From NCBI GenBank assembly GCA_002269645.1, contig NIVC01000019.1, positions 186,001-250,000 of the forward strand: 64,000 nt of DNA. The letters run 5' to 3'. The notes under the pieces are model-generated. The model made no database searches, was not told the DNA's origin, and saw nothing but the letters and a program-made list of their open reading frames with translations. Source of the DNA: Macrostomum lignano (taxonomy: Eukaryota). This document shows positions 21,751 to 48,200 of this stretch, piece by piece (the first letter of the stretch is position 1; every line of letters starts with the position of its first letter). The position numbers and the translations under genes were made by a program.

Positions 21751-22093
21751 ATTGAGATTCAAAAAACTATTGAGGTAACTATTAATGAACTCTCCAGCCA
21801 CATATCATTTTGAGCTTCCAAGCGTTATTTACTGAATTATTTCGTTTACTTCGTGTTTCATTCCTGTTGTGTTTGGTCTTGTGTTTGTTGGCAGTGAAAT
21901 ATACAGTGGCTATAAGTGATGAATTGAATATAATTGAAATATGCTTCAACCATAGACAGTGACGGCGGACAAATGTAGAGCGTTTCAATCGCGTTTCAAC
22001 CCAGGCAGCCTACCCATAATTAGTGATAGCGGGGCTTGTAACCAGATAATAAAGCTAGGACTCTTATATATTAGGAAGGGATGAGGGAGGCGG

Positions 22094-26564: not shown

Positions 26565-29500
26565 CTATGGACGGAGGGTTGGCGCCGCCCAGGGAGGTCC
26601 CCCAGTGTCGCCAGCAGCTATGGTGCTCTCTGGAAAGGAGAGTTCAGCCCTGCGGGTGGCCCGAAGGTAGCGCATGAGCTGATTAAAGTTTTCGGGTTTG
26701 CACGCTTCAGTAATAGATGTGTGTGGCCCGAGGTAAGTGAGTCTGGCCCGCGTGAAGGCGGGACAGATGCTGACGAAATGCTCAGCGGTTTCGTCACCTG
26801 AGTTGCAGAAACTACAGGTGGCGTTGGTGGCGTTGCCCTGCAGGTACTGGTGCCTGGAGAAGCAGCCGTGACCAGAGAGGGTCATGGTGGCAGCCCGGAT
26901 GTCTCTGCGCGAGAGGCGCAAGAGGAGCTTCCGGAGCTGGTGAGAGGGCTGAGGGACAGCGCCTCTGGATTGCCTGCAGTTCGTGCGGTTCGCCCAAGTC
27001 GAGCGGTGCTGAGTCCTGATCCACGCTTTGATGCGCGAGTCGATGACACAGCCAAGAATCGGGACAAGAGGTTCGGGGCCGAGAGAGGAGCCGGAGGCAC
27101 CAACTTTTGCAAGGGTGTCAGCCAACTCATTTCCTCGGATCCCCACATGCCCCGGAACCCACTTAAGGGTAATTTTGTTGGCGGAACCCAACATGTTGAG
27201 GAGTTTGATACAGTCGAGGACTGTAGCAGATTTGGTGCTGCAGCCACTGATGGCGTGCAAGGCAGCTTGGCTGTCCGAATGGAAAATGATGTTCTTACCA
27301 GTAACGCCAGTGGCGAGAAGCTCTGCAGTGCAGGAGCTGATGGCCAGAACTTCATTTTGGAAAACACTGGAGTTGACCCCAGTGTATTGAGCGTGGGTAG
27401 CGATGACCCTCCCGTTCAGAAAGATTCCAACACCAAAGCCGGTGTTGGCTGACTGCTTAGAACCGTCGGTGTAGCAATGAAGCTCACCAGGGTTCCATTG
27501 GTCATTGATGTTATCGCGCGAGTCGATAGCTACGGAGTAGCGCTGTCTCAGGTTGAGCGTTGAGGCAATGCCATCGGTGAAGACGCGATTGGCCTGACAC
27601 TCGTTGAGAAAGTTGAGGCACAGATCGCTATGCGGGACAAGGTTCCGCTTAGCAGGTGCTCTCATGTAAATGAATTTGACGCCGGCATCAATTAGACGCC
27701 GCGTCGTTCTAGCCGCCTCACCCCTGATGAAGAGGTCAAGAGGCGGAAGATTAAGGAAGGCCCCCATGCCAGCAAAGGGCGTGGACCTGGTGGCGTTGCA
27801 GATGAGCCTACACGCTCTGCCTTGGATCGTGTTGAGCAGGTCTGCATGGCTTTTGACCTGGGTAGCGCTAACCCAGACAACAGAGGCGTACGTAATGGCA
27901 GGTCTAACTACGGAAGTATAGATCCACCAAAGCCGCTTTGGGGATAGACCCCAAGAAGTGCCAAGTGCTCGTCGGAGCTGGGCCAGGATGGCTGAGGCAC
28001 GCTTGGCTTTTGCTTTCACGTGGGAGGACCAGTAGAGCCGGTGGTCAAGTATGACCCCGAGACATCTGGTCTGGTGCGCGAAGGCAATATCTCTGCCGTA
28101 GAGCTGCAGAGGACGTATGTTCCAGCGTAGTCTGCTGGTAAACATAATGGCAACGGTTTTGGGCTCAGAGAGTTCCAGACCATTGTCATTGGCCCAGGAT
28201 TCTGCTTTGCGGATAAAGCTCTGCATCAGATCCCTGAGCGTGCTGGGAGACGGTCCTGCCACAATGGCCGTGACGTCATCAGCATACCCGACTTTGAAGA
28301 CGGGGTCGGGTCGGGAGTCACTCAAAAGAGCGTCCATGACCAGGTTCCAGAGCGTCGGGGTGAGGACTCCGCCTTGGGGTCCACCCTTACAGACTCTGGT
28401 GGAGGCAGTTTGCCCAAGAAGTTGGGCAGTGACCGTACGGTTGGAGATCATGTACATGATCCACCGTATGAGGGTAGCATGAGCTTTGCGATTTTGAAGG
28501 GCCCTCTGAAACGCTTCAAAGATAACGTTGTCGAAGGCGCCAACAATGTCAAGAAAGAGAGCCAGAGCGTAACCGTCACCCAGTACCGCCCTTTCAATCT
28601 TCTCGACAATCGCATGCAAGGCGCTGTCAGTCGACCTCCCGGTACGGAAGGCGTGCTGATTATTGCTGAGGGGCATCGCTGTCAGCTCGCAGGACAGCAG
28701 CCGCCAGAGAATAAGCCTCTCAGTGAGCTTAAGCATTGCTGACGTTAAGCTAATAGGCCGGAAGGCCTTGACGCTTTGGTAGTCACCCTTCCCAGGTTTG
28801 GGAATAAAGACTACCCGAGCTTCAGTCCAGCATTTGGGAACGTATCCCAGCTGGATAGAGGCCCGCATAAGATTGCGGGTGAGTCTCAGGAACGAGGGTA
28901 TCTTGGCTGCTTCACGAAGGAGAACAGGGTAGATACCATCAGGTCCAGGAGATTTGAAGGGTTTGAAGGTTCTGACCGCACGAGCGATTAGGTCTTCAGT
29001 GACAATGCCCGCCGCTAGGGTGGCTCCATCCATCGAATGGTTGGGCTCCGGTCTAGCAGTAGGTACCCTCGGGAAGAATGTGCTAAGCATATGCTGAAGC
29101 ACTTCTTCAGGGTCTTTAGTAAGAGAGCCATCATCTTTTTTGATCATGGCTAATTTGGACATTTTGTCCATTGTAAGGGCCTTGACAAGCCTAGAAGTAG
29201 GTCTGTCTTGATCCAATTCATTGCAGAATTGGCGCCACTTACATTCCTTGGCCTTGCGCACTTCAGATTTGAAATTGCGGGAGGCTTGCCGGAAAAGCTC
29301 CATGTCCTCCGGGTTTCCGGTCTTCATGGCACGGCGATGAAGGCTTTTGGCCTTCCGCTTGAGTTTCCCCAGCTCCGGGTTCCACCACGGCGCCGAGGTC
29401 TTGCCTTTGTAGGCGCGAGCAGGACAAGCCGATTCGTAGGCTTCAATAATGCAACCTGTCAGCGTCTCAGCCATATGATCCACATCCTCGCAGGTCTCAA

Positions 29501-30311
29501 TCGGACGTAAGTCCGTGAGTTCCTGCAGGTGCAGATCAAGGGCAGCCTTGTAGGCCGCCCAATCAGTGTTGCGGATACGAGTATTGCGTCTCCAAGTGAT
29601 CGGAGACTGGGTTTTAGTGTCCGCGATGTTAAAGGCGATAAAGCAGTGGTCAGACAGGGAGGGCTCCTCAGACCAGACTCTCCACTCCTCAACTCTGTCA
29701 AAGAGTCTTGGGGTAACGAGTGTGGCGTCGAGGACCTCGGTCCATCTGCCATTATTAAAGGTAGGAGTGCTGCCACGGTTGCAGAGCATGAGGTTTGTGT
29801 TAGAGATGAGGGCCAGAAGCTCCTCTCCTCTAGTGTTGGTATCTTTGCTGCCCCAGTGCTTGTGGTGCGCGTTGAGGTCGCCCCCTAAGCACAGCTCAGC
29901 GTTCTGGGACTCGCAGTACTGCGCGAGGCGCAGTAAACTCTCAGGAGCAGGGTCTCTGTCGCCTGGGATATAAACCGAGGCAACAAGACACGTACGCGGA
30001 GAGAAATGATTAGATTGGATGACGCAAAGGTCTCCATCAGAGAGATCAGTCCTCAGCCAAGCCTGGAGATGGCTAGCAGCGAGGATAGCCGCTCTAGGGC
30101 GACTGTTCCCCGGGCCACACACATAAAAATCAGAGTAGCCAGAGGGAATGTTGGGCAACTTACCGTTGCGCATCCAGGGTTCCTGGATCAGGATGAGGCC
30201 TGGCCTGTACAGCTCAGCAATCTTCATCAGATTTACTGACGCAGATACGCAATGCTGTAAATTAATTTGCAGACAGAATGTCGCTCCTTTGGCAGCGTGG
30301 AGCTTAGTCAT
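26565..30311 (-). CDS. LINE ORF2: APE endonuclease, reverse transcriptase, RNase H, C-terminal CCHC (1248 aa)
   Basis: ILIQEPW, GGDLNAHH, SDH (APE); KSPGPDGI, FRPISLTS, LDIVGAFDNV, PQGGVLTPTLWNLVMD, GYADD (RT); YTDGSK, SDSQAAL, WVPGHVGIRGNELADTLAK (RNase H); CSFCNSGDETAEHFVSIC. Confidence 0.95.
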   Translation of the reverse strand: MTKLHAAKGATFCLQINLQHCVSASVNLMKIAELYRPGLILIQEPWMRNGKLPNIPSGYSDFYVCGPGNSRPRAAILAASHLQAWLRTDLSDGDLCVIQSNHFSPRTCLVASVYIPGDRDPAPESLLRLAQYCESQNAELCLGGDLNAHHKHWGSKDTNTRGEELLALISNTNLMLCNRGSTPTFNNGRWTEVLDATLVTPRLFDRVEEWRVWSEEPSLSDHCFIAFNIADTKTQSPITWRRNTRIRNTDWAAYKAALDLHLQELTDLRPIETCEDVDHMAETLTGCIIEAYESACPARAYKGKTSAPWWNPELGKLKRKAKSLHRRAMKTGNPEDMELFRQASRNFKSEVRKAKECKWRQFCNELDQDRPTSRLVKALTMDKMSKLAMIKKDDGSLTKDPEEVLQHMLSTFFPRVPTARPEPNHSMDGATLAAGIVTEDLIARAVRTFKPFKSPGPDGIYPVLLREAAKIPSFLRLTRNLMRASIQLGYVPKCWTEARVVFIPKPGKGDYQSVKAFRPISLTSAMLKLTERLILWRLLSCELTAMPLSNNQHAFRTGRSTDSALHAIVEKIERAVLGDGYALALFLDIVGAFDNVIFEAFQRALQNRKAHATLIRWIMYMISNRTVTAQLLGQTASTRVCKGGPQGGVLTPTLWNLVMDALLSDSRPDPVFKVGYADDVTAIVAGPSPSTLRDLMQSFIRKAESWANDNGLELSEPKTVAIMFTSRLRWNIRPLQLYGRDIAFAHQTRCLGVILDHRLYWSSHVKAKAKRASAILAQLRRALGTSWGLSPKRLWWIYTSVVRPAITYASVVWVSATQVKSHADLLNTIQGRACRLICNATRSTPFAGMGAFLNLPPLDLFIRGEAARTTRRLIDAGVKFIYMRAPAKRNLVPHSDLCLNFLNECQANRVFTDGIASTLNLRQRYSVAIDSRDNINDQWNPGELHCYTDGSKQSANTGFGVGIFLNGRVIATHAQYTGVNSSVFQNEVLAISSCTAELLATGVTGKNIIFHSDSQAALHAISGCSTKSATVLDCIKLLNMLGSANKITLKWVPGHVGIRGNELADTLAKVGASGSSLGPEPLVPILGCVIDSRIKAWIRTQHRSTWANRTNCRQSRGAVPQPSHQLRKLLLRLSRRDIRAATMTLSGHGCFSRHQYLQGNATNATCSFCNSGDETAEHFVSICPAFTRARLTYLGPHTSITEACKPENFNQLMRYLRATRRAELSFPESTIAAGDTGGPPWAAPTLRP

Positions 30312-30350
30312 ACTGTATTAAATGCAATTTCTGGCTAGAGCCCAGGGCCA

Positions 30351-31530
30351 TCAAGGAGACTTGGACAACAGATCGTCCTCGTCCCAGGCCGCTGGGGCTT
30401 GACTGGGAGATGGGAGTTGGTCGACGTCCATGGCCTCCTCACCCCCACCGGCCCCCCCAGCAGAGTCCTCAGGCTCCGATGACAGGATGGAGGAAGCTTC
30501 CTCACCTGCATCTTTACCTTCAGACCCCACCAGGGTGGCCGAGGAGAGCTCGGATTCCGAAGACCCGGCCTCGTCCTCAACTCCTTCTCCGACTGGCAGG
30601 TTTGGTTCCCGGGGCTTGGCCGGAGCCGTTACCGCGGTCGCCGAACTGCTGCTAGCAGAGGGGCGAGACGCAGCTTTGGCTTTGGGATCGGCTTGCGCCT
30701 TTCCTTGGGCCTTAGACTGCGCCCCGCTCTTGCCGGAGATGCCGGGGTTGGCAGTAGCCTTCCCTTTGGCAGACTTTCCTCGGCGCATCTTGAGCTTGAG
30801 GGCACCCAGCTGGAAAGAGGATCCATTAGGGTACCGACTCGCCCAAGTGCTGGAAAGGCCGAGGACAATTGAGTTGCCCGTCTCCCCCCTGCGGACTTTA
30901 CGGTGATACACCAGTCCACTAGCAGGGAGGTCGGGGTTCAGACGCAGTAGGACCCGGCGAATAACGTCTGGTCCAGCTGCGGTGCTCTTAGCAGGGACGA
31001 AAACCACATAGGGTATCGTCTTTGGACGCTGGCCCTCGCGAAGAAAAAGAGCTCCGCCAAGGTCAGCATCCAAGGAGACCGTCGGTAGCCGCTGGAGCAG
31101 CTGCCGAGCGTCCTCCTCGCTGCTCGGAGCAATAAGAACGAATGTGCTTCGCAGCACCATCCGCTCAATGCCGATGGAGATTCCCTCCTCGACAGTCAGC
31201 TCAATCAGATAGGAGTCAACAGCACTCCACACTTTTTGAAGCTGATCAGTGGTCCAGTCCTGGTCGCGACCTTGAATGATCACTCCCGGGATTTTGGCCT
31301 TGGCCTTCGCCGCAAAGGTAGCTCCCGAAGGAACCTCCTTGTTGGCAGTGGCCATTTGTTGCGCCGTGGTTTCGGCCTCAGCAGCCGCAGCAGCATCTCC
31401 AGGGAGCGCCGCCGCTGAACTACCGGAGCTTCCACCGGGCGGCCCGTCTGGTTGCCTTGGGACGCCAGTCGCTTCAGCATCCATGGTGGACGCCGCCGCT
31501 TTGGCCCCCGCAGCTCCCTTCTTGGCCTGC
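30351..31530 (-). pseudogene. LINE ORF1, 3' part (disrupted by Gypsy insertion)
   Basis: Open frame ending 39 nt before ORF2; central region (LLRLNPDLPASG...GNSIVLGL) resembles DUF4780-type ORF1; the first codons in the ORF track (31535-31571) are LTR-derived. Confidence 0.8.
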
Positions 31531-31534
31531 CTTT

Positions 31535-32400
31535 TGTAGTGACTGGCTGCTAACTGGCTATTCAGCAGCACTCACTAGCTTTCTCTTAAGAGTGCTGTGA
31601 TCCGCTGCACAGTATCTCAGTCCACCTGAGCTAGTGAGAGAGTTACCCTGTGCTGGGCCTAAGTGTTTACTGCCCGATGACTCATCGCCTGAGCGGGCGC
31701 GGGCAGCCACACTCAATGTCTTCCCACTCGCGCTGAGGAGGCGTTGCAGGATGACTCATCACCTGCGCGGAGTGTAAGGGCTGCCTAGAGGGCGTAAACG
31801 GGATGACTCATCCGCCCATGTTCTTTTTAGCACAGAATAAGCACGTGACTGTGCACGCACTCTGAGCGTGGCCACTGACCTTGAGTCACGCCACTGCTGC
31901 GTGACAGGGTTGCCTTATTTGGAAGTTGGCCTTGGATCACGCGTTGCCCGCATGATTCCAATGCCCAAATAAGGAAGTTTCACGCGCTCACCGCATGAAA
32001 CTCACGTGACTTTTGGGGGTCAGCTCGGCTATAAATACGGAGCATCTGCGAGCCATTTTCTCCAGACTTGAGAGCACCGTGTTCGTAGACTGCGTCGTCT
32101 CGCGGAGCATTGTGGCTAACTCGTGAAGCCTCTGCCTCCGAGCTCTCCTCTCTCATTTCAGGTTTACAGGTTTCAGGTCCGAGCAGCATTCAACTAAGAC
32201 GATCGACTGTCGAGACATTTTTTCAGATTTGCCTTTGCTCCGAGCGACTTTGTTAATTTTCTTTCAGGTGACGGATAGACAACTCTGCCGACGCGTCGAG
32301 TCCGCACACCAAGGTGGCAGCAACCCTACCAAGCAACGGCAACGTTTTAGGTTCATTTTCAGGCAAATCGTTAGGACCGAAGCAAAGGGCAAACGTTACA
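31535..32400 (+). repeat. 5' LTR (866 bp)
   Basis: TGTAGTGACTGG ... CGTTACA; by eye differs from the 3' LTR only by one T in a T-run (about 32218). Confidence 0.96.
31678..32037 (+). promoter_or_regulatory. LTR U3 enhancer/promoter: four AP-1-type sites, E-boxes, TATA box
   Basis: TGACTCA at 31678, 31752, 31804; TGAGTCA at 31882; CACGTG near 31841 and 32004; TATAAATA at 32030. Repeated in the 3' LTR. Confidence 0.55.
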
Positions 32401-32401
32401 C

Positions 32402-32425
32402 TGGTGGCACAGCGGTGAGATTCGA
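32402..32425 (+). other. Primer binding site, tRNA-Leu-like
   Basis: TGGTGGCACAGCGGTGAGATTCGA one base after the LTR; resembles the complement of a tRNA-Leu 3' end (TGGTGGCAGCGGTGGGATTCGA) with a 2-nt insertion. Confidence 0.7.
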
Positions 32426-32627
32426 GATTCGAGACAAAGGATTTGAGATTCGAGATTCGAGACAAAGGATTTGAGATTCGAGATTCGATACAAAGGATTC
32501 GAGATTCGAGATACGGGATACAACAAGCAAGCAGGAGAACGTCACCGAATCGACGTCAACGTCACTCAACTATCACCCTTTCGGACACGTCATCAGTCAC
32601 GCCTACCACGACTAAGTCAGCATCAAG

Positions 32628-33806
32628 ATGTCTCACGACAGTGATCGAGAAGATCTCATCGGTGATCAACAGCACACGCGTCAGGACAACGGAAACTCCG
32701 CCGCAGCTGCTGCAGGTTCGCCCATACCATGTGGTTTAAGATTTAATTTTAGAGACGACTCAAGAGAGGAGGAGGAAGATCCATTTGCAGGACTCAACAA
32801 CCTCGGACGCGACACCAACCCGGACATGATCCGCAGGATGCTGCAGGCCATGCAACGTCAGCTCGATCTACAGCCTAAGAAGCAAGTCAAGATGAAGAGC
32901 TACACGCCATCGCAGGACATCCGCGTTTGGCTAAAGGCTTTCGACCTACGATGTGAGGCAGAAGATCTACAGGATGAAGACGACAAGAAGGCCCAATTGC
33001 TGGCGAATTTAGACTTAAATTCGGCCTACGCCGCGGTACTTCGTATGAGGCTGCCCGACTGCATCAGCTATCGACAGCTTCAGCAACGACTAATAGAGAG
33101 ATTCGCACGACTCTCAGGACCAGACGAATATCGAGAGGAATTCAGAGGTCGCAGCCAGCGCAAGAACGAATCAACGGAAGATTACGCCGATGCTCTGCAG
33201 GAGCTAGGAGAGCAAGCCTTCCCTTGGCTCGAGCCTCGCCATCTAGAGCAAGAACTGATTGACCAGTTCCTGCGCGGGATTCGCACGTCATCAGACTGCC
33301 GAGAGAAACTTTTCTGGATCCGACCTACGACACTCAGCGAAGCCTTGCGAGCACTGAAGAGGATGGAATTAGCCAAAGACCTGGCTCATCGTTCAAAGGA
33401 GCCCCCGGTCAGAATGTTGGACGGGGAGGGACAAGCCTCAAAGGAGCCCAACAACAGCGCCCTCTCGAAGTTGGAAAAGGTCGTTGAGCAACAAGCCGCA
33501 ATGATGCAGCAGCAGCAGCATCTGCTTAACACGTTGGCTCAGCAAGTCACAGCCAATCAAGTGATCGGTCAAGCGAACCGACCGCCGCACTACACGTGCT
33601 ACGAGTGTAATCAAGACGGACACAAGGCGAGAGATTGTCCGTACAGACGCCAATCATCTCAGCAGTTTACGGGAAACGGCCGGCCGGAGGACGTAAACGG
33701 CAACGCCCCCCGAGCTCCAGCCCAGGCTATGCAGCCGACACCGAACACGCCCCGGAAGAGTATGGCCCCGCAGCCGCGGCAGCTGACTCGTCCGAGTCGT
33801 CAGTAA
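32628..33806 (+). CDS. Gypsy Gag (392 aa)
   Basis: Retrotransposon gag core (WLKAFDLRC, QRKNESTEDYADALQELGEQAFP, LIDQFLRGI) and zinc knuckle CYECNQDGHKARDC. Confidence 0.92.
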   Translation: MSHDSDREDLIGDQQHTRQDNGNSAAAAAGSPIPCGLRFNFRDDSREEEEDPFAGLNNLGRDTNPDMIRRMLQAMQRQLDLQPKKQVKMKSYTPSQDIRVWLKAFDLRCEAEDLQDEDDKKAQLLANLDLNSAYAAVLRMRLPDCISYRQLQQRLIERFARLSGPDEYREEFRGRSQRKNESTEDYADALQELGEQAFPWLEPRHLEQELIDQFLRGIRTSSDCREKLFWIRPTTLSEALRALKRMELAKDLAHRSKEPPVRMLDGEGQASKEPNNSALSKLEKVVEQQAAMMQQQQHLLNTLAQQVTANQVIGQANRPPHYTCYECNQDGHKARDCPYRRQSSQQFTGNGRPEDVNGNAPRAPAQAMQPTPNTPRKSMAPQPRQLTRPSRQ

Positions 33807-36800
33807 ACGAAGAAACGGACGATGGAGGTTTCGTGGACGCCTCCTTTGTAAATACTGTCCATGCGCGTGACGCCGATCCATTTATTACAGGACGAGTGGC
33901 TCGACGAGAGGTCGCCTTTCTGCTAGACAGCGGAAGCAGAAGAAACTTCCTCGGAGCGTCCACTTGGGCCGCCATTAGGCGTCGTTCACCACGTTGTATA
34001 GTCGCACCTGCTTATCCTAACCGAGTCGCTATGTACGACGGGACCGAGTTAAGTCTCGCCGCCAAGGTTATCCTATCAATTGAATTCGGGGACTATGTCG
34101 CGGAAACCGAATTCTTCGTCGCCGAAGGAGACTGTGAAAATCTTTTAGGAATTGATTTCATGCGGAGTCACTGCCAAGGACTGGACTTCCAACAAGGAAT
34201 GCTCACATTCCGACAAGGCACCCGACTTCCGGTACGCTATTCAAGGAGAGAACTGAAGGCCTGCCGAGTGTACGTCGCTGAAAAATGCACTCTGCCGCCT
34301 CAATGTTCCTGCCTCGTCGCCATTAAACTAGCCGAAGGTCATCAGCAGAACTACGGTTCACCGATGATTATCGAACCGCTCAAATCAGGACTGCGAGCGA
34401 AGCATCACCAGTTAGACGCAGCCCCGGTCCTGCACACGATAACAGAAGGTCGAGGAGTGATGGAAGTACTCAACCCATCAGACACGGAGGTTCACTTGCG
34501 TCGCAACATGCTATTGGGAGTAGCCACGCCACTCAAGACCCAGGACCTCGAGTACTTCAGCGAGTCGAATGAGCCAGAAGTCCGTCAACTGAATACGACT
34601 GAAGAAACGACTGACAGTTGGATCAACGAGGTCGACATCGGGGACCAGCTGAATAGCCACCAGAGGCACCAGGTTCAAGAAGTACTCAAGGAATGCGAGA
34701 AGGCATTCTCCCTAACTCCGTTGGACCACGGACTGACTCACCTGGTAACTCATGAGATAGTGCTCACAGACTCGACGCCAATCGCGATTCCTCCTCGCCG
34801 GATACCTCCGCATCTACGACCGCAACTGGATCAGATGCTCGACGATATGCTGAAGAAAGGCATCATTCGGCCAACGTACTCCAGTTACAATTCGCCGATG
34901 ATCCTAGTGCCAAAGAAGGACAAGACGATTCGCATTGTGCACGACTTCAGAGCGATCAACGATGTGACGCTGAAGCATCCGTACCCGATCCCGCACATTC
35001 AGGAAACTTTCGCCAAACTCAAAGGAGCGCAGTGGTACTCAAGCCTCGACCTGGTACAAGGTTTCTACCAGATCCCTCTCCGTGAGGAAGACCAGGACAT
35101 CACTGCCTTCTCTGTGCTCGATCGTGGACAATTCTGCTTCAAGGTGCTACCAATGGGACTCACCGACAGCCCCGGATCGTTCCAGCGTTGTATCAACCAA
35201 CTGCTAGAAGGACTAGCACCGCAGGCCGCTCTTGGTTACATGGACGATATCGTTGTACACGCAGTGACGTTCGAAGATCACTTAGACCGTCTACGACAAG
35301 TCCTAAACCGAATCATAGCCGCCAACTTGAAGCTAAAGCCGAAGAAATGCCATTTATTCAAGAAGGAGCTCCACTATCTAGGCCACGTGATTACGCCGGA
35401 AGGCCTACGGACAAGCGAAGACAAGATTGAGCAGATACGCAGTTGGCCAACGCCTCGGACTGTTCGTCAACTACGAAGCTTTCTTGGTCTAGCCAATTAC
35501 TACAAGAAGTTCGTCGAGGATTACTCGGGCATTGCGGCCCCGTTACACGCATTGACACGCAAGGACCTGCAAGGATTCCAGCGTCATTGGACGCAGCAGC
35601 ATCAGACTGCCTTTGAGACTCTGAAGAGCAAGCTATGCTCAACCGAAGTACTCGCCCTCCCAGAGTTCAATGAGGATCCGAAGGTCAAGTTCATCCTGGA
35701 TACCGACGCATCTGACACCCGAATCGGTGCATGTCTAGGACAACTACAATCCGATGGAATAGAACGACCGATCGCCTTTTTCAGTCGCAAGCTCCGTGAC
35801 CCGGAAGTTCGCTACACGGTCACCAAGCGGGAGCTACTGGCTATTGTCGATGCCATGCGACACTTTCGAGAATACTTAATAGGAAAGAAGTTTGAAGTAA
35901 GAAGTGACCATAAGGCCTTGCTCTGGCTGTTACGTCAGACTGAATCTACAGGGATTCTAGGTCGATGGGTCCAGAGGATCAGCGAATTTCAGTTCACCAT
36001 CTCCCATCGCAAGGGTACTGACCACACCAACGCCGACGCGCTATCAAGACGCCCGGACACGCCTCCGTTAGAATGCGATTACGGAGTACTCCAAGACGTC
36101 GACGCTGTCCTGGCTTGCCACCGCGAGGAGACAGGAGACACCACTCAGCGTGAGTGTCGCCGCATTAAGGAAACTGATCCGGGCATCGATTCAGAGGCCA
36201 CCGCACCAGCAGCCCTCTCAATCAAGACCCACAATCGCGATCCAGAGGCAGAGACCGACTTGGACAACGAACCAGAGGCCACCGCACCTGCAGCCCTCTG
36301 CCGAGTTCTCCACTGTTCACGGCGAAGCCAGGAGACAGCAAGCTTGGATGAAGACACAGAGGCCACCGCACCAGCAGCCCTCTGCCGAGCCACCCACGCT
36401 CGCCGTCACTTCAAGGAGACCAATCTGGATGAAGTTCAAGAGGCCACTGTACCCTCAGCCCTCTCCAACGACAGCCATCAGGTCTACCTACAGAGTTTGG
36501 AGACTGACTTGGACGAAGATTCGGAGGCCACCGCTCCAGCAGCCCTCCCAGTCGAGCGCCACTGCTCAGATCTCGGTCGAAAATTTACCGCTGAGGAGTC
36601 CCGCTGCTCTTCCATGAGCCGACAGACTCAGCAGGTCGAGCCGTCTCGTTGCTCTTCCATGAGCCTGCAGCCGACCACCCATTATCAACGCGTGGACGAT
36701 ATGTCTTGCGCCATGACGCGCCTTCGTCCTACGCCGAAACCGACGCGTTCCTATGCAGAGGTGACGAAGTCTGCATACGAGGAAGACAGAGCACGTACAG

Positions 36801-38764
36801 CTGAAGCATCTCCCCAGCTCGCAACTTCTCAAAGTCTGCCGCGCTGCCGAGCATTGCTTACGGATCATCTGAAGCCGCCTTTGCCGCGCGACAAGCTCAT
36901 CAAAGCTCAACAGGATGACCCAGCTATTGGCTACGTTTACAAGTTGATCAAGGAGAATCAACCGAAACCAGCGTTTGACGATCGATTACGACTTAGCAGA
37001 GAGCAACGGAATCTGCTTGGATACTACGAGTTACTATTCCTCGAGCGAGACCTACTCATGATCAACATGACGGAAAAAGACACTCCACCGAAGATTGTCT
37101 TACCAGTAGCTCTCGACAACGAAGTTTTTAACGAGCTCCACAATTCGCCTTTAGCAGGACACCAAGGACAGCGAAAGACCGCCCAACGTGTGCGCGAAAG
37201 ATTCTGGCGAACAGGTCTAGTCCGAGCCATTGAGACCTACGTCAGCAAATGCCGAACCTGCCTAGAGAGCAAGTCACGACGAAAACAGCAAGTGCCAGTG
37301 CAGAGCTTTCCAGTCTGTGAAGTTTTTGGAAGACTTCACATGGATGTGATCGGACCAATTGCGCAACCGTCCAAAGGAGGTCATCGATACATCCTGACAC
37401 TCTGCTGTGCGACATCAAAGTTTCCGATAGCTTATCCGATGAGAAATCAGAAAGCTAAAACCGTTATCCGATTACTACAGGACCGATTTATTCCAGAATA
37501 CGGAGTTCCAGCTTGGATTCACACGGATCAAGGCACGAACTTTACAGGAAACGCCTTCAAGAAGTTCTGTGATCTCTACGCTATCAGGCACACGACAACG
37601 ACGCCGGACAACCCAGCATCCAACGGACTGGTAGAAAATCGGAACAAGCAGATCAAGAGCATTCTGACATGTCTCCTCGAGCACGATCATCGCGATTGGG
37701 ACACATTTCTGCCAGCGTGCATGATTGCTCTTCGATCCAGCGTTCATCCAGTCACAGGCTATACGCCTTACTTCTTAGTCTATGGCCGAGAATACAGGAT
37801 GCCCCTCGACAATTCATTGAAGCTACTCCCGGAGTACGCTAACCTGCCTGATTACGTCGCAGAATTTCAGCAACGCCTCAAGCACGCCACGGACCTCGCC
37901 AAGGAACGGCTAGGCCTGCATCAGCAAGCGCGAGACGAACACTACGAGAACCGACCAGCAGCTAAGAAGCTACAGCCGGGAGATCTCGTCTTCTTGAACA
38001 ACCCGGTCCTACACGAAGATGAAGCAGCAAAGTTCCACAGGCCAAGGAGATCGTTGTACGAAGTGGTGGAAAGCAAAGGAGAGGTCGTCTACAAGATTCG
38101 ACGGAAGGTTCGACACCCTCGAGAACGACCGGACGAGATGGTAGTTCATCGCCGGAACCTCCTCCTTGTGCCCACTTCAGATTACCCAATTGCAGATCTC
38201 GAAGGGCCAGCTGAACCGAAGAAGCAACGCCGAGTTCGACAGGCTGACGCCGGAGCTGCGACACTCCCCGCCATCTCTGAAGACTCTGACGAAGAAGAAG
38301 ACGACCTGGACATGAGACCCGCCTACCGCTGGCGACTCCGATCAGCTGCTCAGCCAGGCGCGCGTCCAACCGAAGTCCGCATCCAGGAACCTGAAGTTAT
38401 GGAGAATAGAGTTGAGCTTGAGTCACTGCCGTATGATTCTTGCGACGCTCCATCTGCTCCTACAGTCGAACCGTTGAGGCGACCTGAAATTAGAATTAGC
38501 GATAGGATTAACCTAGACTCTGATAGGAACAATCAATGTAATAGTCATGTTTTGTCGGCCAATTTGCCAAATAATAGTCATGTTTTGTCGGCCAATTTGC
38601 CATCAACTAGTCAAGTCGACTGGGCCGTCAATGACAGGCCAGTTAGGGCTCGAAGGGAACCTGACCGCTTGGTTCTTAAACCAAAGTCAAAGTCCTACTT
38701 GAGCCGGTTAATCAACTTTTTCCGCCGGCCTCGTGCCTGTTCCAGAGCTGAAAAGCAACATTAA
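33671..38764 (+). CDS. Gypsy Pol (PR-RT-RNase H-IN), probably expressed by -1 frameshift
   Basis: FLLDSGS (PR); LPMGLTDSPGSFQR, YMDDIVV (RT); ILDTDASD (RH); HHCC, LHMDVIGP, IHTDQGTNF, SNGLVENRN (IN); PGDLVFL. Slippery G GGA AAC at 33671-33677 lies in the gag frame and pol is in the -1 frame. Confidence 0.95.
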   Translation, partial: GKRPAGGRKRQRPPSSSPGYAADTEHAPEEYGPAAAAADSSESSVNEETDDGGFVDASFVNTVHARDADPFITGRVARREVAFLLDSGSRRNFLGASTWAAIRRRSPRCIVAPAYPNRVAMYDGTELSLAAKVILSIEFGDYVAETEFFVAEGDCENLLGIDFMRSHCQGLDFQQGMLTFRQGTRLPVRYSRRELKACRVYVAEKCTLPPQCSCLVAIKLAEGHQQNYGSPMIIEPLKSGLRAKHHQLDAAPVLHTITEGRGVMEVLNPSDTEVHLRRNMLLGVATPLKTQDLEYFSESNEPEVRQLNTTEETTDSWINEVDIGDQLNSHQRHQVQEVLKECEKAFSLTPLDHGLTHLVTHEIVLTDSTPIAIPPRRIPPHLRPQLDQMLDDMLKKGIIRPTYSSYNSPMILVPKKDKTIRIVHDFRAINDVTLKHPYPIPHIQETFAKLKGAQWYSSLDLVQGFYQIPLREEDQDITAFSVLDRGQFCFKVLPMGLTDSPGSFQRCINQLLEGLAPQAALGYMDDIVVHAVTFEDHLDRLRQVLNRIIAANLKLKPKKCHLFKKELHYLGHVITPEGLRTSEDKIEQIRSWPTPRTVRQLRSFLGLANYYKKFVEDYSGIAAPLHALTRKDLQGFQRHWTQQHQTAFETLKSKLCSTEVLALPEFNEDPKVKFILDTDASDTRIGACLGQLQSDGIERPIAFFSRKLRDPEVRYTVTKRELLAIVDAMRHFREYLIGKKFEVRSDHKALLWLLRQTESTGILGRWVQRISEFQFTISHRKGTDHTNADALSRRPDTPPLECDYGVLQDVDAVLACHREETGDTTQRECRRIKETDPGIDSEATAPAALSIKTHNRDPEAETDLDNEPEATAPAALCRVLHCSRRSQETASLDEDTEATAPAALCRATHARRHFKETNLDEVQEATVPSALSNDSHQVYLQSLETDLDEDSEATAPAALPVERHCSDLGRKFTAEESRCSSMSRQTQQVEPSRCSSMSLQPTTHYQRVDDMSCAMTRLRPTPKPTRSYAEVTKSAYEEDRARTAEASPQLATSQSLPRCRALLTDHLKPPLPRDKLIKAQQDDPAIGYVYKLIKENQPKPAFDDRLRLSREQRNLLGYYELLFLERDLLMINMTEKDTPPKIVLPVALDNEVFNELHNSPLAGHQGQRKTAQRVRERFWRTGLVRAIETYVSKCRTCLESKSRRKQQVPVQSFPVCEVFGRLHMDVIGPIAQPSKGGHRYILTLCCATSKFPIAYPMRNQKAKTVIRLLQDRFIPEYGVPAWIHTDQGTNFTGNAFKKFCDLYAIRHTTTTPDNPASNGLVENRNKQIKSILTCLLEHDHRDWDTFLPACMIALRSSVHPVTGYTPYFLVYGREYRMPLDNSLKLLPEYANLPDYVAEFQQRLKHATDLAKERLGLHQQARDEHYENRPAAKKLQPGDLVFLNNPVLHEDEAAKFHRPRRSLYEVVESKGEVVYKIRRKVRHPRERPDEMVVHRRNLLLVPTSDYPIADLEGPAEPKKQRRVRQADAGAATLPAISEDSDEEEDDLDMRPAYRWRLRSAAQPGARPTEVRIQEPEVMENRVELESLPYDSCDAPSAPTVEPLRRPEIRISDRINLDSDRNNQCNSHVLSANLPNNSHVLSANLPSTSQVDWAVNDRPVRARREPDRLVLKPKSKSYLSRLINFFRRPRACSRAEKQH

Positions 38765-38775
38765 GTCACTAAAGG

Positions 38776-39906
38776 ATGACCGGCAAGGAAAACCGCAAGA
38801 AGCGTGACCGCGAACCATCTAGAACGCCCTCGCCGGCCAGTGGGCGCAAGCGGACCCGGCCTGCTCTACCATCTCGCACGGCCCGTGTCATACCAACACC
38901 GGCGCAGGACCCGACCCGCAGGCGCCGAAGTCGCTGGGATGAGCGGCCACGTCATGCGGCCCGAGTGGAAGTGCGCAGGCTGGCGCCGTTACAGCCAACT
39001 CAGCAAGGCGATCCACTCGCGGTCGCCAGGGAGCGAGCAGCCGCCATCCGCCTCCGGTTAGACCCGCCGCGCGCTATCCTAGCTGACGCCCGGCTGCCGG
39101 CAGCTGACAAACCGATCTCGCCATCCCGACCAGGACCGCCACCGGCGCAGCCGCTACCAGAGCCTCCGGCGCAGAGCTTGCCCGATCACCAGCGCCAAGA
39201 TGACATGGTGCTCCAGCTGTTCGGGAGTCCGGTCAGCTCCTTGCAAGAGGAGCACGGCGAAGACTTGCTGCCGCCGCTGCAGGACCTGCTGTCTCCAGGG
39301 GAACACTCCGCCCCAAACGCCCAACCACCGGCTCTATTCGATCCACAGAGGGACATCCTGCGCACTCCGCCGCAACCGCACTCGCCACCTCCGGCTCAAT
39401 ATTTAGGCGTGTTGACGCCGCCGCCGCAGCCAGATACCATCAATCTAGATGAAATCCCCACGCCGCCCACGCCGCCAACACCGCGCTTCCGCCGACCGTC
39501 GCCCGTGCCATCGCCGCCCCGCTTATTCAATCGAACGGAACTAGCGGAGGCCATCAGCGTCGCCATCCGGACTCGGCCTCAGCAAAGGGATGCAGCGACC
39601 CAAAGTGACTGCCTAAGCGTTGTACAAGAGGGGGCCATCATCGCTCTTACGGAGCTCCTAGTAGCAGCGGGGCTCAAAGGGCAGCTCTGCCGCAGGTGGC
39701 CTGACCGCATCCAAGAGGAGTTCCGTGCGGCCGCGCCTGAGGAAAGGCGACGGGCCATCAAGGAGATCGGCCGTAGAACCGCCGAAGCCCTGCCGCCGCA
39801 TCCGCCGCACGCCACTACACTCGAACTGGCGATCCTCAAGCTTCTCTTTTTCCTGGGACAAGCTAACGATGTGCCGAGCCCTTTTGGCAAATTTGTGCGT
39901 TATTAA
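38776..39906 (+). CDS. Gypsy ORF3, unknown function, basic and proline-rich, not env-like (376 aa)
   Basis: Uninterrupted ATG ORF starting 11 nt after the pol stop, inside a young element; GC-rich against an AT-rich 3' UTR; no signal peptide or clear TM segment seen. Confidence 0.75.
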   Translation: MTGKENRKKRDREPSRTPSPASGRKRTRPALPSRTARVIPTPAQDPTRRRRSRWDERPRHAARVEVRRLAPLQPTQQGDPLAVARERAAAIRLRLDPPRAILADARLPAADKPISPSRPGPPPAQPLPEPPAQSLPDHQRQDDMVLQLFGSPVSSLQEEHGEDLLPPLQDLLSPGEHSAPNAQPPALFDPQRDILRTPPQPHSPPPAQYLGVLTPPPQPDTINLDEIPTPPTPPTPRFRRPSPVPSPPRLFNRTELAEAISVAIRTRPQQRDAATQSDCLSVVQEGAIIALTELLVAAGLKGQLCRRWPDRIQEEFRAAAPEERRRAIKEIGRRTAEALPPHPPHATTLELAILKLLFFLGQANDVPSPFGKFVRY

Positions 39907-40270
39907 CAACATCAAATTTTGGCAATAGTAACACTTTTACATTTACAAAAAAAATTGCAATCAACAACATCAAAACTTTTCGATCTATTTCAAAATTTTT
40001 CATCACTTCAAAAATAATCAAAATAATCTGTATGCAAAATAATCATCTTAAATACGCATTTTGCTCCCTTAAATTTTACAAAATAAGCAATCAATCATGT
40101 AGTAGGTATAATTCAACGCTGCCTTACTCAAGTACACCATCTCTTTGTAGGCGCTTCATTTTACGGTCAGCTTTATTTGTAATAAATACTCATTATCCAG
40201 TGGCCTTGTTAGAGCCGATTTTTGTTTTCAAATAAAATTGAATCATCGTTCCGCTGCTGCAATTTAATTT

Positions 40271-40282
40271 GGACGGGGAGAG
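40271..40282 (+). other. Polypurine tract
   Basis: GGACGGGGAGAG directly before the 3' LTR. Confidence 0.85.
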
Positions 40283-41147
40283 TGTAGTGACTGGCTGCTA
40301 ACTGGCTATTCAGCAGCACTCACTAGCTTTCTCTTAAGAGTGCTGTGATCCGCTGCACAGTATCTCAGTCCACCTGAGCTAGTGAGAGAGTTACCCTGTG
40401 CTGGGCCTAAGTGTTTACTGCCCGATGACTCATCGCCTGAGCGGGCGCGGGCAGCCACACTCAATGTCTTCCCACTCGCGCTGAGGAGGCGTTGCAGGAT
40501 GACTCATCACCTGCGCGGAGTGTAAGGGCTGCCTAGAGGGCGTAAACGGGATGACTCATCCGCCCATGTTCTTTTTAGCACAGAATAAGCACGTGACTGT
40601 GCACGCACTCTGAGCGTGGCCACTGACCTTGAGTCACGCCACTGCTGCGTGACAGGGTTGCCTTATTTGGAAGTTGGCCTTGGATCACGCGTTGCCCGCA
40701 TGATTCCAATGCCCAAATAAGGAAGTTTCACGCGCTCACCGCATGAAACTCACGTGACTTTTGGGGGTCAGCTCGGCTATAAATACGGAGCATCTGCGAG
40801 CCATTTTCTCCAGACTTGAGAGCACCGTGTTCGTAGACTGCGTCGTCTCGCGGAGCATTGTGGCTAACTCGTGAAGCCTCTGCCTCCGAGCTCTCCTCTC
40901 TCATTTCAGGTTTACAGGTTTCAGGTCCGAGCAGCATTCAACTAAGACGATCGACTGTCGAGACATTTTTCAGATTTGCCTTTGCTCCGAGCGACTTTGT
41001 TAATTTTCTTTCAGGTGACGGATAGACAACTCTGCCGACGCGTCGAGTCCGCACACCAAGGTGGCAGCAACCCTACCAAGCAACGGCAACGTTTTAGGTT
41101 CATTTTCAGGCAAATCGTTAGGACCGAAGCAAAGGGCAAACGTTACA
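40283..41147 (+). repeat. 3' LTR (865 bp)
   Basis: Near-identical to 31535-32400; duplicate ORFs in the ORF track confirm it. Confidence 0.96.
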
Positions 41148-41530
41148 CTTTTGGCGCGTTGTTTAGCGCGTTTGCGCTCAAGCCGAGCCCGCTGAGCTTC
41201 ATCGGATCTGCCAGATTTTGCCGGTCCTTTAGGCTCAGAGCTCGCGGTTCCCTTAGATCCACCAGCGGAGCTGGCAGGTCTTTGGGTATTTTGAGTTTGG
41301 TAGCTCTGGTCGGATCTGCCAGCAGAGCCAGCCGGTCCTTCCTTTGCCACAGTTGAATCAGTCGGTTGGGATCTGCCAGCAGGGCCGGCCGGTCCTTCGG
41401 ACTGAGGTTGGGGTTTAGAAGGGTCTCCGTCCCTAGAAATAGCTTGTTTATCCATAGTCGGCTCGAAGGCCATGATAGAAGGTTGGTGGGCTACCCTCAA
41501 AGGGGCGCGGTACCCACCCGGCCGCTCCAC
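41148..41530 (-). pseudogene. LINE ORF1, 5' part
   Basis: MERPGG...RLERKRAKQRAK joins in frame across the CTTT TSD to RQAKKGAAG at 31530, reconstructing an ORF1 of about 520 aa. Confidence 0.85.
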
Positions 41531-42753: not shown

Positions 42754-43458
42754 TAGTTAAGCATAGCTTAGTTTTAAGCTTTTTTTATTTAACGAGATAA
42801 CCTGAGACGAGCGTTAATAGAGTCAGAAACTATTTTGTGACACAGACAAATAAACTAAAGCTGGGGCAACGACTGAGAATCAAGGTGCATTGGGTTCGGA
42901 TAGGTATTCAATAGGTGTTTAAAAACCAAACAGTTCCTATCTCTCGAATTCGCCTTTATAAACCTGATTGCTTAAATTTATATCGATGATCTGACAGTCT
43001 CCGTGCAGGATTAAGAGAATAAGTCTCAGCTAGTTCAACACTGAGCTATCAGATATTTTTGCCTAAACTGATAACAGCACAGAATTTCTAGCGCTTTGGC
43101 AAGCATTCATGAAAAATTGTAATAGTAAGTTTTTTAGCTGACAAAGGTAGCAATAGGATTTGACATTTCACTCTAGTAAATATTTATTTAAACCCACGGT
43201 TCCACGAGTAAAAAACTGCCAGCGATTACTTCAATCGTTTTTTACTGCAGTGCAATAAGTGTTGAAAAAATACAAAACTTTAAGTCCAAATCCAGGTTAG
43301 GAAAGGAGTTGCACTTTTGTAAGACGCGGCTATTTTTATGGATTATCCCATATTACTGTACATACACTTACACCCGCACGCTATAGAAACAATTTTTGGT
43401 CATTATTCCAAGACGAGACGTGGCAAGACGCACGCGAAATCAGCATTCATAACAGTGT

Positions 43459-43715
43459 TGTTTATGGTCAAACTATAGGACACACATCACAGTTGTCTAT
43501 GGTCAAACTATAGGACACACATCACAGTTGTCTATGGTCAAACTATGGGACACACATCACAGTTGTCTATGGTCAAGCTATAGGACACACATCACAGTTG
43601 TCTATGGTCAAACTATGGGACACAAATCACAGTTGTCTATGGTCAAACTATGGGACACAAATCACAGTTGTCTATGATCAAACTATGGGATACACATCAC
43701 AACCTTGTCTATGGA
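43459..43715. repeat. 35-bp tandem repeat (about 7 copies)
   Basis: Unit TGTCTATGGTCAAACTATAGGACACACATCACAGT. Confidence 0.93.
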
Positions 43716-43759
43716 ATACTATCCTCTCAAAACAGCCAATCTAAAGCTTGACTGCGGGC

Positions 43760-45273: not shown

Positions 45274-48200
45274 TCAATCGTCCATAAATTCGGTCAAACT
45301 GCCAAACTGGTTCATCGGGTGCATCTCCACATCCAGCTCGCCTTCTGTCAGGTTGGCGAACATCTCGGCTGGCACAGGCGACGCCGATGCTGCTGCGCGC
45401 GCTGCCCCGGCATCCGGGTCGTCCAATAGCTCTTCGCCTCGACGATGCTGAATTTTACGATTGCCGCAGGCCGCGCGTCGACCGCCGTCAGGAGCTTCTG
45501 TCGAGGGCGAGACGCCGCCATTGTTTAACGCTGGCTCCGGTCGGAGCACCGGCTGCTGCTGCCGACCCCGACGGTCGCGACGAAGTCGGCGGCGCATGCA
45601 GACGAAGCGGCACAAAGTAGCCACTATCGCCTGCGCGATCTCCACCACCTCAAACAGTCCGACGATGCTCACACCCAAGTAGAGTCCCAGCTGGCCGCCA
45701 ATGTCTGACATCAGCTGTGAGAAGGGAAACTCGATTGACTCCACCACCTGTTTGGTTGTGTTTCGGATGAACGATTTAAGTATGTCTATTGTTTCTCATT
45801 GCTAGAAACCACATTGAAGTACTTTAATTGGAAAACTACAACAGGAACAGGTTCAATCGATAAATTGGTCGTATGAGGTCTCTTTTCATTCGTGTTCAAA
45901 TAACTAATAAATTCAGAATAGATACGGGATGACTTCTCAACTCACCTTATCCGAGTACACGCTGCGAGCTTTAATGTGCGCATCGGAGCAGTCGGTGCGC
46001 AAAAGCTGGCTCAGCTCCTTGATGCTCATGTTGTTCTGTACAAATTCCAGCTGTTCGTCGAAAGTCCAGTCCGGGTACTTGCGGGACACGATATTTGTGG
46101 CCACCGTCTGCGGAGGCAGTAAAAAGTTTAGATTAACTTTAGTTAGCATTTTAACGGTCATTAGACTCCGAAAACCACCGCAAATTGTCTGGGTATCCAG
46201 TTTACTGATATGCAGTTTTGTTTTTACTGGGGTCGTGTGACGGAGCATAATTTAATTTAAATTTATGGATTACAAGACTTTTTTTGAAGACACGAACACT
46301 TGATAAATTGAATTAGGTATAGCTCAGACACTTACGTCCATCATGACCAGTTTACTGAGGTGGAATTCGGAACGCTACGCATGAGGTGAACACAAAAAGG
46401 TTGAATTTCGTCGAAAATTTTCACAAGACTGGACTTTCTTTCAAATATGCGATATGGATGAAGCTTAGTTAGCTCACCAACTCTTTTCTGAGCTGTTTGT
46501 TAACTGGCACAGAAGCGCTTGAAGACATTTTTGTTTGGCATTGAATGCTCTTCGTATTTATCTGATAACGATTTTGAAATCCTACAGAAAACTTCAGTCG
46601 TAATTTTGATTTCCGCACACATTCTCTTTGGTCATTACAAAAAATCACAAAATCAATCACAAATTTTGCAAGCACTGGCTCTGACGGCTATAAAAACGAA
46701 GATGAATAGAATATTAATTTCGGAATCAATTGGCGTATTTGTATCCGGGGAGTAAAGCAAAATAATTTATAGTAAACTCTATTTGCGATTTGAAGTCACT
46801 CGAGTCCAATGAAGTCTGCCAATGGCCAAAATCCATACATCTTTTGCTGTACCAGCACGCAATCTTCGCTTACCATTACGAGGCATTTGTCTTTCACTGC
46901 ACGCTTGTCTCATGCATCTGCTACGAGCGTACATAGAGATAGAAGAGAACAGCTACCCAGCTAATCAGCCAGAAAGCCTTAGAGCTTATGCGAGATGAAG
47001 GCAAGGGATAGGAAAAATTAATGACCTGGGATTTCGCTGCATCGGCCGCAAAGCAAAAGCAATGCGTAGCAGATGGATTTTCCCCATTCACGCGGGAAAG
47101 CGTTGCCGCGGCGGCGTTAGTATTTTCTTTTCTAAAAAAATTCCGCACACAAAAAACTGCCCCAACCCACACTGAAAACGCATTCAGTGAAGTATTTTCT
47201 TCTTCAGCTTAAGCTGAAATCAGCTTAAGCTGAAATCAGCTTAAGGCACACGAATCGCCAGATAGTGCCGATGGCAGATAAAGCTGGCGGTCCTGAACCA
47301 ACAGCCCACAAATTTTGCGCTGATTCTGTGTAGACAGAAACGATATCTGTCTGTTTGAATAATAAACTATCTGCATAGCTTAATCTATTCATACTACCTA
47401 ATTATACTGCTTCGCTTAGACTTGCACTAAATATTTCGTGGATTTGCCACGGCACATAACAAAAGTGATGTCTTCTGGGTAAATAATTTCACCATACACT
47501 GCTACAACAAAAAAATGCTGTCTGATAGATCTTATACTAGCAGCGCCTCGGGGCAAGAGTAGAGCGTGAAAATAGGCGACAAAACGCTGGCATGAGTGGC
47601 GCTCCGATGCTTGAAAGCGTCAGTGCCTGCAGCATCGCACTGCAAGTACTAAATCTCTCAATCCAATGATACGAGCTATCTACAATATCAATAATTAAAC
47701 CGCGAACATTGGTGCAGTACATTTTTAGTAGCTATCGCTACATTCACCGGCAGATACCTTTACTACGATCCGTAAATTGCCAACTATGATGGCAATATCG
47801 GTATAGGTGCTATACGGTAGCATAAATGTCGTGAAGAATCAGTCACAGATTTAATTTGAGTTGGTGGGAGCCTAACAGGTGTCTGAGTGGCTTGTTGGCC
47901 AATAGATTGCACTCTTAAGTGTCGGCTTTATGACCAGGAAATATAGATTGAGTTGGACTAAAATTTTAATGAAGACTTCTTAGCATATCGTATTAAATTA
48001 AAGGGGGACACTAAATTCGGTCAAAGTCTCTGTCTACTCGGTTCGAAAGCATTAATGATTTGCTGAGGATAAAATAGTAAAAAGGTACTTCTAATTTCGG
48101 CATTAAACTATCTAATCAAAAGGGGGTGGGATTTAGCCTTTAAATTAGCCAGTCTGGACTTTAGTAGCTAGGTAGAGCGCCAATCTCTAGGTCATCATCG

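Follow-up and report, generated by a model that had tools for sequence, protein, structure and literature searches.

The window, a 64,000-nucleotide stretch of Macrostomum lignano DNA (contig NIVC01000019.1, positions 186,001 to 250,000 of the forward strand), contains a complete Ty3/Gypsy retrotransposon at 31535-41147, with LTRs, a primer-binding site (PBS), a polypurine tract (PPT), a target duplication (CTTT, 4 bp, on both sides of the LTR pair), gag, and a pol with its enzymes in RT-RH-IN order (Table 1). Alignment of the 5' and 3' LTRs over 868 positions gives 867 matches and a single indel; the element is very young. It is inserted in ORF1 of a minus-strand LINE (26565-31484 and 41152-41473) that retains an intact 1248-aa ORF2 with endonuclease, RT and RNase H. 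Elsewhere in the window are the apparent final exon of a host gene resembling DEG/ENaC (ASC) channels (45274-45711, minus strand; weak Pfam match, E 2.5e-4) and minisatellite arrays at 12866-17526, 22093-22887, 43413-43736 and 61021-61870, with units of 12/24, 25, 33, 35, 45 and 165 nt.

Table 1. Coordinates of the element, of ORF3 and of their sequence features in the window
Feature	Position	Strand	Remarks
5' LTR (TG...CA)	31535..32400	+	TATA box near 32030; four AP-1-type TGA(C/G)TCA sites
Seven acceptor-like hexamers (TTTCAG, TTTTAG, TTTACAG)	32150..32362	+	transcribed part of LTR; 0/5000 shuffles reach 7
PBS (TGGTGGC...)	32402..32420	+	overlaps donor-like GCG/GTGAGA at 32415
gag, 392 aa	32628..33806	+	Retrotrans_gag, single CCHC knuckle
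pol frame	33807..38764	+	protease-like region, RT, RNase H, integrase, long tail
Predicted 3' splice acceptor (pyrimidine run ... TTCCAG)	38715..38745	+	30 nt upstream of ORF3 ATG
ORF3, 376-aa accessory gene	38776..39906	+	between pol stop (38764) and PPT
Bipartite NLS-like tract RKKR...RKRTR, aa 7-28	38794..38859	+	S/T-P sites in between; putative nuclear import
ULM-like motif RRRRSRWDE, aa 48-56	38917..38943	+	from conservation, shuffles, identity with host SF3B1
Acidic block, aa 148-173	39217..39294	+	pN 0.15 for aa 150-172
SIM-like TINLDE, aa 221-226	39436..39453	+	TPP repeats after it; [IVF]NLD[DE] in 14/14 representatives
LC8-type site DAATQSD, aa 272-278	39589..39609	+	Q 14/14, T 12/14, D 12/14 representatives
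C-terminal four-helix domain, ~aa 283-376	39622..39903	+	from profile searches and AlphaFold2 model
3' UTR and PPT	39907..40282	+	AATAAA at 40181 and 40231; PPT 40271-40282
3' LTR	40283..41147	+	from alignment of the LTR pair

The four AP-1-type sites of the LTR (31678, 31752, 31804 and 31882) are accompanied by CACGTG at 31842 and 32003, and a count of four was reached in none of 5000 shuffles. All 12 scorable LTRs of the family carry four such sites, as against one to three in four sister LTRs, which suggests induction of the element by wounding or stress. Heat-shock control was ruled out, since a canonical HSE is absent from the LTR. Both AATAAA hexamers lie upstream of the PPT and none lies in the LTR, and a subgenomic ORF3 RNA might therefore terminate ahead of the 3' LTR. 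Three diverged 78-nt repeats (EATAPAAL units) occupy 36259-36585 in the long RNase H-integrase linker. Two PBS variants are present among the copies of the family, and in L037 and L038 the LTR end and PBS form two tandem units about 70 nt apart.

ORF3 begins with an ATG 11 nt downstream of the pol stop, in a frame different from that of pol. Its coordinates and the LTR identity agree with the initial annotation, which had placed an intact 376-aa ORF between pol and the 3' LTR of a very young element and had listed the motifs ENRKKRDRE, GRKRTRP, RRRRSRWDE and RDAATQSD, all of them present. The same annotation had argued that the protein is not env, and an env or fusogen identity was rejected here because the N-terminus is basic, signal peptide and membrane span are absent, and the protein contains two Cys and one sequon. 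The best 19-residue hydropathy window (1.70, aa 279-297) is not a membrane span, since it coincides with helix 1 of a predicted soluble domain and is polar in other alleles. ORF3 contains 15 S/T-P sites, and its acidic block includes LxxLL-like stretches. No clear Rev-type export signal was seen in ORF3; the segment LPPLQDLL resembles the Rev signal, except that the final hydrophobic position is missing. No Pfam family was matched by ORF3, and searches for homologues of the whole protein returned none among 7996 candidates, as did the longer query A4 among 7996.

Selection on ORF3 and exchange of its alleles

A search of the M. lignano genome with ORF3 gave 67 matches from 90 candidates, many of them fragments or near-duplicates. 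Uninterrupted ATG-to-stop ORF3s were found in 4 of the 30 loci that were fetched: the window, L002, L004 and L005. Rates were estimated by the Nei-Gojobori method with the poorly aligned aa 105-150 excluded. In five between-lineage pairs of intact copies dN/dS was 0.13-0.19 and thus not near 1, and in the close pair L004/L005 it was 0.36. Over 87 pairs among 14 lineage representatives, drawn from the 30 loci after near-duplicates and some fragments were dropped, the median was 0.15 (range 0.05-0.28). RSRWD is kept in the intact copies. We conclude that ORF3 is a real gene under purifying selection; the proposal of a genuine, selected, non-env accessory gene is upheld.

The synonymous divergence of ORF3 is entirely out of line with that of the rest of the element. 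In six near-complete copies (L035-L038, L045 and L052), dS relative to the window is 0.04-0.08 in gag, 0.04-0.07 in PR-RT-RH and 0.03-0.08 in integrase. The RNase H-integrase linker has a dS of 0.004-0.03 in six copies, below that of the enzyme regions. For ORF3 aa 1-104, dS reaches 1.9-2.6 in four of the six, is saturated in L036 and is 0.69 in L045, and aa 215-376 give 1.2-1.4 in L037, L038, L045 and L052. Identity to the window is ~95% up to the pol stop, ~65-70% from there to the PPT, and ~95% again beyond it, with the 3' UTR moving together with the ORF3 allele. Some alleles are themselves mosaic: L002/L003 are 95-96% identical to the window in aa 215-376 and 65-66% in aa 1-104, and within aa 150-214 L013 and L015 are 91% and 86% identical. 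When 20 sequences were grouped by eye at ~90% identity, about 12 N-terminal and 13 C-terminal lineages were distinguished. A single integrase (98-99% identity) is paired with ORF3 alleles just 67-80% identical to that of the window, and the same pattern is seen in sister families, in which the pol tail is 98-99% identical and ORF3 40-49% (L088/L122/L123 and L120/L121) or 93-97% and 43-66% (L079 group).

ORF3 is exchanged among elements, as old and diverged alleles that have been recombined onto one backbone. Low dN/dS combined with very high dS indicates movement of old alleles by recombination; fast protein evolution as the source of the divergence was rejected, since it is dS that is high. 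The allele series may be maintained by balancing selection arising from conflict with the host, and synonymous sites close to saturation beside a 95-99% identical pol would then record a long host-element conflict over one small gene.

A shared C-terminal domain with LC8-type and SIM-like sites

Searches with the representatives yielded a single outside homologue, P0002 (190 aa, E 4e-27), which was also the only match to query A3 among 7995 candidates and whose best own-genome match is 45%. P0002 retains INLDD, the helical domain and a canonical EAAVQTE; the ULM region lies outside its sequence. An integrase search, in which the best 150 of 4328 candidates were scored, recovered 12 family copies at 94-100% identity and sister families at 62-81%, and the stretch downstream of integrase was fetched for 60 sister loci. 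A profile built from the window family and P0002 alone selected, out of 657 segments, the terminal segment of sister ORFs (top E 1.2e-5, as against 0.079 for the best reversed decoy), and on iteration the C-terminal domain was found in 33 of the 60 loci. More distant families (~63% integrase identity; L097:2747-3328 and L098:2409-3245) contain an acidic ORF3 with KKRRR and LVVDL, whose terminal domain was weakly similar in the first profile search (E 1.2) and was not recovered on iteration.

Addition of the sister sequences raised the pLDDT of the AlphaFold2 domain model from 53, with 17 close sequences, to 86.7 (pTM 0.79), with predicted helices at approximately aa 285-301, 310-318, 321-338 and 346-361. 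What had been described as a helical-looking C-terminal region is therefore predicted to be a four-helix domain. Foldseek with this model gave no match at E<=0.001 in PDB or BFVD, and a VIA search of 48,161 chains gave none at Z>=8; the best (FAM86A, Z 6.4, rmsd 3.4, 88 aligned) is ordinary for helical bundles, and the fold searches do not establish a new fold. Among sequence searches, Pfam returned nothing credible for 30 domain sequences (DinB_2 in four members, best E 0.01), and the best PDB match was a 65-residue chain named DBL5 (E 0.0069).

Immediately before the domain lies the LC8-type site. The LC8 motif is [D/S]-4 K-3 x [T/V/I]-1 Q0 [T/V]+1 [D/E]+2 (PMC3078936); in ORF3 the D at -4, the T at -1 and the Q at 0 are the conserved columns (Table 1), D stands at +2 in 8 of the 14 representatives, and position -3 is A, not K. 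At +1 the residue is V in 6 of 14, S in the window and never T. Most sister proteins with the domain have LC8-type sites of TQT or CQT form. Canonical TQT is present in sisters L081, L087, L088, L093 and L120. Of 12 distinct sister ORF3s, 10 match a loose LC8 pattern with a chance of 0.05-0.18 per protein, the match in L091 being at a non-equivalent place. Many TQT peptides fail to bind LC8 (PMC6607443). The TQT and VQT forms in relatives nevertheless lend backing to the LC8-type reading of the initial annotation as a candidate site. SIMs have a hydrophobic core of (I/V)DLT type flanked by acidic residues, and a SIM-type IDLT occurs in 7 of the 12 sister ORF3s (shuffle chance <=0.01 each); the window TINLDE is unmatched by the SIM pattern used and is at most a putative positional homologue of the sister IDLT. 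The first account of ORF3 was right about an accessory gene and overlooked the domain common to the clade, the swapping of cassettes and the SIM-like motif. ORF3 is a non-env accessory ORF, more complex than first read.

One proposal for its function, the main rival to a Rev/CERV-like role, is that ORF3 counters silencing. Its SIM-like, LC8-type and helical core would engage SUMOylated factors of chromatin silencing and either push them aside or act as their decoy, many alleles would stay in circulation through the counter-measures of the host, and the ULM would merely help to tether the protein to nascent RNA. The frequencies of the two motifs in sister ORF3s fit this idea, as does the swapping of cassettes across the clade beside pol tails that are nearly identical. 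VIDLT is the SIM of PIAS1 (PMC4907222), and both SUMO with SIM-bearing effectors and LC8/Cutup function in fly Piwi silencing (PMC8490990). However, the available text of that source describes an LC8-containing silencing complex for Drosophila only (PMC8490990), LC8 and SUMO are general hubs, and the window motif departs from the SIM pattern as noted above. A sister subfamily without ORF3 bears on the question as well. It comprises 10 of 47 loci (L080, L083, L103, L104, L106-L108, L110, L113 and L114 among L079-L125), some of which may be duplicate assemblies of one insertion; its pol tail is 93-95% identical to the L079 group (measured for L080), and its pol stop lies 17 codons past the conserved end motif and ~530 nt before the PPT. 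ORF3 is therefore not required in cis there, and the spread of these copies fits action in trans but equally dispensability. We regard an antagonist of silencing as possible though doubtful, while noting that the shared core of ORF3 fits it nearly as well as a Rev/CERV-like role.

In other sisters (L079, L081, L087, L089, L094, L115 and L117-L121; 73-79% integrase identity), the ORF3 homologue continues in frame with pol with no stop between them. This arrangement, with the NLS-like tracts and the LC8-type site, could suggest that ORF3 is an integrase-associated module for LC8/dynein transport, nuclear entry or SUMO-chromatin tethering of the integration complex, present as a Pol fusion in some families and as a detached ORF here. 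Such a module appears quite improbable: a stop separates pol and ORF3 in the window family, L095, L096 and L098, the window-family spacer keeps no frame, one nearly invariant integrase is combined with widely diverged ORF3 alleles, and copies lacking ORF3 have integrated. The fused families moreover retain an acceptor-like site and an ATG at the pol/ORF3 junction, and a single sequence could serve there both as Pol tail and as free protein.

The ULM-like motif and its conservation

ULMs are characterized by a central Trp with basic residues before it and D, E or N after it (PMC5113200), a pattern to which RRRRSRWDE conforms. ULM searches give near-random numbers of matches, and ULMs are hard to call from sequence (PMC5113200). 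Indeed, a loose ULM pattern arose in 11% of shuffled ORF3 proteins and DxxTQ in 6%, so that the short motifs of ORF3 need evidence of conservation, which is present. Mean pN is 0.088 over residues 48-55 as compared with 0.28 and 0.37 in the flanks (aa 30-47 and 56-63), with pS ~0.62-0.66 throughout. Among the 12 representatives covering the region, R51 and S52 are retained in 12, R53 in 11, W54 in 10, D55 in 11 and E56 in 6; the two exceptions at W54 are a stop and a Leu, both in copies bearing several stops. The host SF3B1 contains GKRRSRWDETP, so that RRSRWDE is common to ORF3 and SF3B1 at seven of seven letters, and the host also encodes a U2AF65 UHM. A strict motif pattern, written post hoc, had a chance of 4e-5 to 2e-4 in 100,000 shuffles of the ORF3 protein.

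Twelve distinct sister ORF3s with the C-terminal domain are uninterrupted, and in none of them was the motif present in either its strict or its loose form. Sequence comparison thus indicates that the ULM is a family-specific add-on and not the core of ORF3, and its absence from all 12 means that mimicry of a splicing factor cannot be the ancestral or central role of the protein. The first reading of the ULM accordingly stands as to conservation in the family and identity with the host SF3B1 heptamer; the sister ORF3s show that it is not the whole story.

Neighbouring blocks are conserved as well as the ULM block, both aa 1-29 (mean pN 0.070, pS 0.61) and, by column counts, aa 65-70, and the surroundings were judged disordered or of low complexity from composition. 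The ULM may consequently belong to an Arg-rich import or RNA-binding patch. In its strongest form this alternative holds that RRRRSRW is part of such a patch with a structural Trp, that the ULM likeness is incidental, and that ORF3 is, for example, a transactivator working through the conserved acidic block with its LxxLL-like stretches. The frequency of loose matches among shuffles, the sister ORF3s without a ULM, the equally conserved neighbouring basic blocks, the conservation of the acidic block and the four AP-1-type sites of the LTR are compatible with it. We consider it unlikely in view of the complete heptamer identity with SF3B1, the low shuffle chance of the (post hoc) strict pattern, and the retention of S, W and D across saturated synonymous divergence while the flanks drift. 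A peptide with the ORF3 ULM would probably bind a UHM, if by a limited preponderance. A predicted complex of the host U2AF65 UHM with ORF3 aa 30-72 scored 0.20 against a mark of 0.34, a value obtained with controls not folded and the alignment unused, which speaks neither for nor against binding; a higher score would in part have reflected resemblance to known ULM-UHM structures.

Splice-acceptor-like sites and a proposed nuclear role for ORF3

In all 14 family loci tested (counts omitting L091 and L128), TTCCAG lies 21-35 nt upstream of the ORF3 ATG, and the spacers fall in all three frames; translation by readthrough from pol was rejected for the window family on this basis. The family acceptor sits within pol coding sequence, and its conservation may be partly coding. 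Of the 60 sister loci, 37 fit the pattern YYYCAG/C..ATG. Among the 23 that do not are the 10 ORF3-less copies, which read AACGCAG where others read ATTTCAG (three loci shown) and so lack a pyrimidine acceptor, and three copies with a TTGCAG variant. In L095 and L096 the acceptor-like site lies downstream of the pol stop. A contig from X1, a run guessed to be RNA, starts at 38745, which is explicable by branching between copies, and the X1 depth profile resembles that of X11, a run of unspecified kind. Among the matches listed for contigs of runs guessed to be RNA, none placed a joint or a loose end at this acceptor. An internal promoter for ORF3 is possible.

Additional acceptor-like hexamers are clustered in the LTR, within its transcribed part. 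LTRs from other copies of the family, 12 in all, have 5-8 of them each (a thirteenth TATA match, at a locus end, was unscorable), whereas 12 scorable sister LTRs from 20 loci have none in 10, one in one and two in one. No ATG is present between the TATA region and gag. A donor-like site at the PBS of other copies reads GTGAGA in 3 of 10 units and the weaker GTGGGA in 7 of 10. Trans-splicing affects 38.8% of the genes of M. lignano, which also has multi-gene precursor RNAs (PMC5730564); in such a host, unpaired acceptors would threaten the genomic RNA of the element. The sole family with the ULM is also the one with the LTR array, a link that depends on one evolutionary event.

Starting from an intact selected ORF, conserved short motifs and a common helical domain, we favour, at a probability of roughly 40%, the view that ORF3 is a nuclear regulator analogous to Rev or CERV, whose SF3B1-type ULM would occupy a host UHM splicing factor and so keep full-length RNA unspliced. 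Since the spacer holds no constant frame relative to pol, ORF3 would have an mRNA of its own, formed by cis- or SL-trans-splicing at the TTCCAG that lies 30 nt upstream of the ATG. The protein would enter the nucleus by its bipartite basic tract and be dimerised by LC8 beside the helical domain. The ULM would then compete with SF1/SF3B1 for U2AF65 or a relative at the many acceptor-like sites of the element, and a feedback loop would result in which spliced RNA gives ORF3 and ORF3 spares genomic RNA; conflict with the host would drive the exchange of alleles. The fuller version, in which one family gained both an exact SF3B1 ULM mimic and the array of LTR 3' splice sites as its own switch between SL-trans-spliced mRNA and unspliced genomic RNA, with a balanced, recombining series of ORF3 alleles on a nearly uniform gag-pol-LTR backbone, is rather unlikely to be right in all its parts. 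If true, it would represent a ULM mimic in a retrotransposon and an independent Rev-like control tuned to a trans-splicing host.

The protection of unspliced genomic RNA of LTR elements is understood in few cases (Rev, CERV), and we found nothing in the literature on such protection in hosts with widespread trans-splicing, nor any report of a ULM mimic in a retrotransposon or of such a flatworm ORF3. The main text of a paper on M. lignano LTR elements (PMC12801592) contains neither 'ORF' nor 'splic'; its supplements 2-5 and a companion study could still describe the ORF. The family offers natural controls in ULM-less sister ORF3s, in copies lacking both acceptor and ORF3, and in about a dozen alleles on one backbone, and a partner could be fished for with the confidently modelled helical domain, which has no clear known match.

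Several known systems resemble ORF3 in part. The DEDDy and GDSL ORF3s of bdelloid rotifers are likewise modular, exchangeable and selected extra ORFs located after pol and before the 3' LTR, but they are captured enzyme folds (PMC5408684), whereas the window ORF3 is mostly disordered, combines short motifs with a domain unmatched in Pfam, PDB or BFVD, and has deep alleles within single families. The N-terminal ULM/TP region of host SF3B1 shares RRSRWDE with ORF3, set in both in disordered surroundings rich in TP/SP (PMC5113200). ORF3 has one ULM rather than several, no HEAT repeats and no sign of descent from SF3B1, and it lacks the TP directly after WDE, with P at W+4 in 8 of 12. CERV of the C. 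elegans element Cer1 is, like the predicted ORF3 product, a nuclear accessory protein of an LTR retrotransposon with an NLS and a proline-directed phosphosite; it is made from spliced mRNA and needed for unspliced genomic RNA (PMC10309623). CERV differs in sharing exons with gag and in having H, M and G-protein-like domains and a Cys loop, and no ULM is described for it in the available text (PMC10309623). ORF3 occupies the env slot and shows none of these domains.

A further likeness is to HIV-1 Rev, a retroelement accessory protein with a Trp-centred ULM in an Arg-rich stretch near import signals, for which competition with SF1/SF3B1 for U2AF65 has been proposed (PMC6511859). Compared with Rev, ORF3 has three times the length, reproduces the SF3B1 motif exactly, and contains a C-terminal four-helix domain in addition to its LC8-type site and SIM-like motif; a response element and an export signal are putative at most. 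Rev and CERV domains were absent from the sequence and fold matches listed, the confidently modelled part being aa 270-376. No test made places ORF3 in the Rev or CERV families, and it may be called Rev-like only by analogy, and the product of this conserved non-env ORF is predicted to be a nuclear scaffold.
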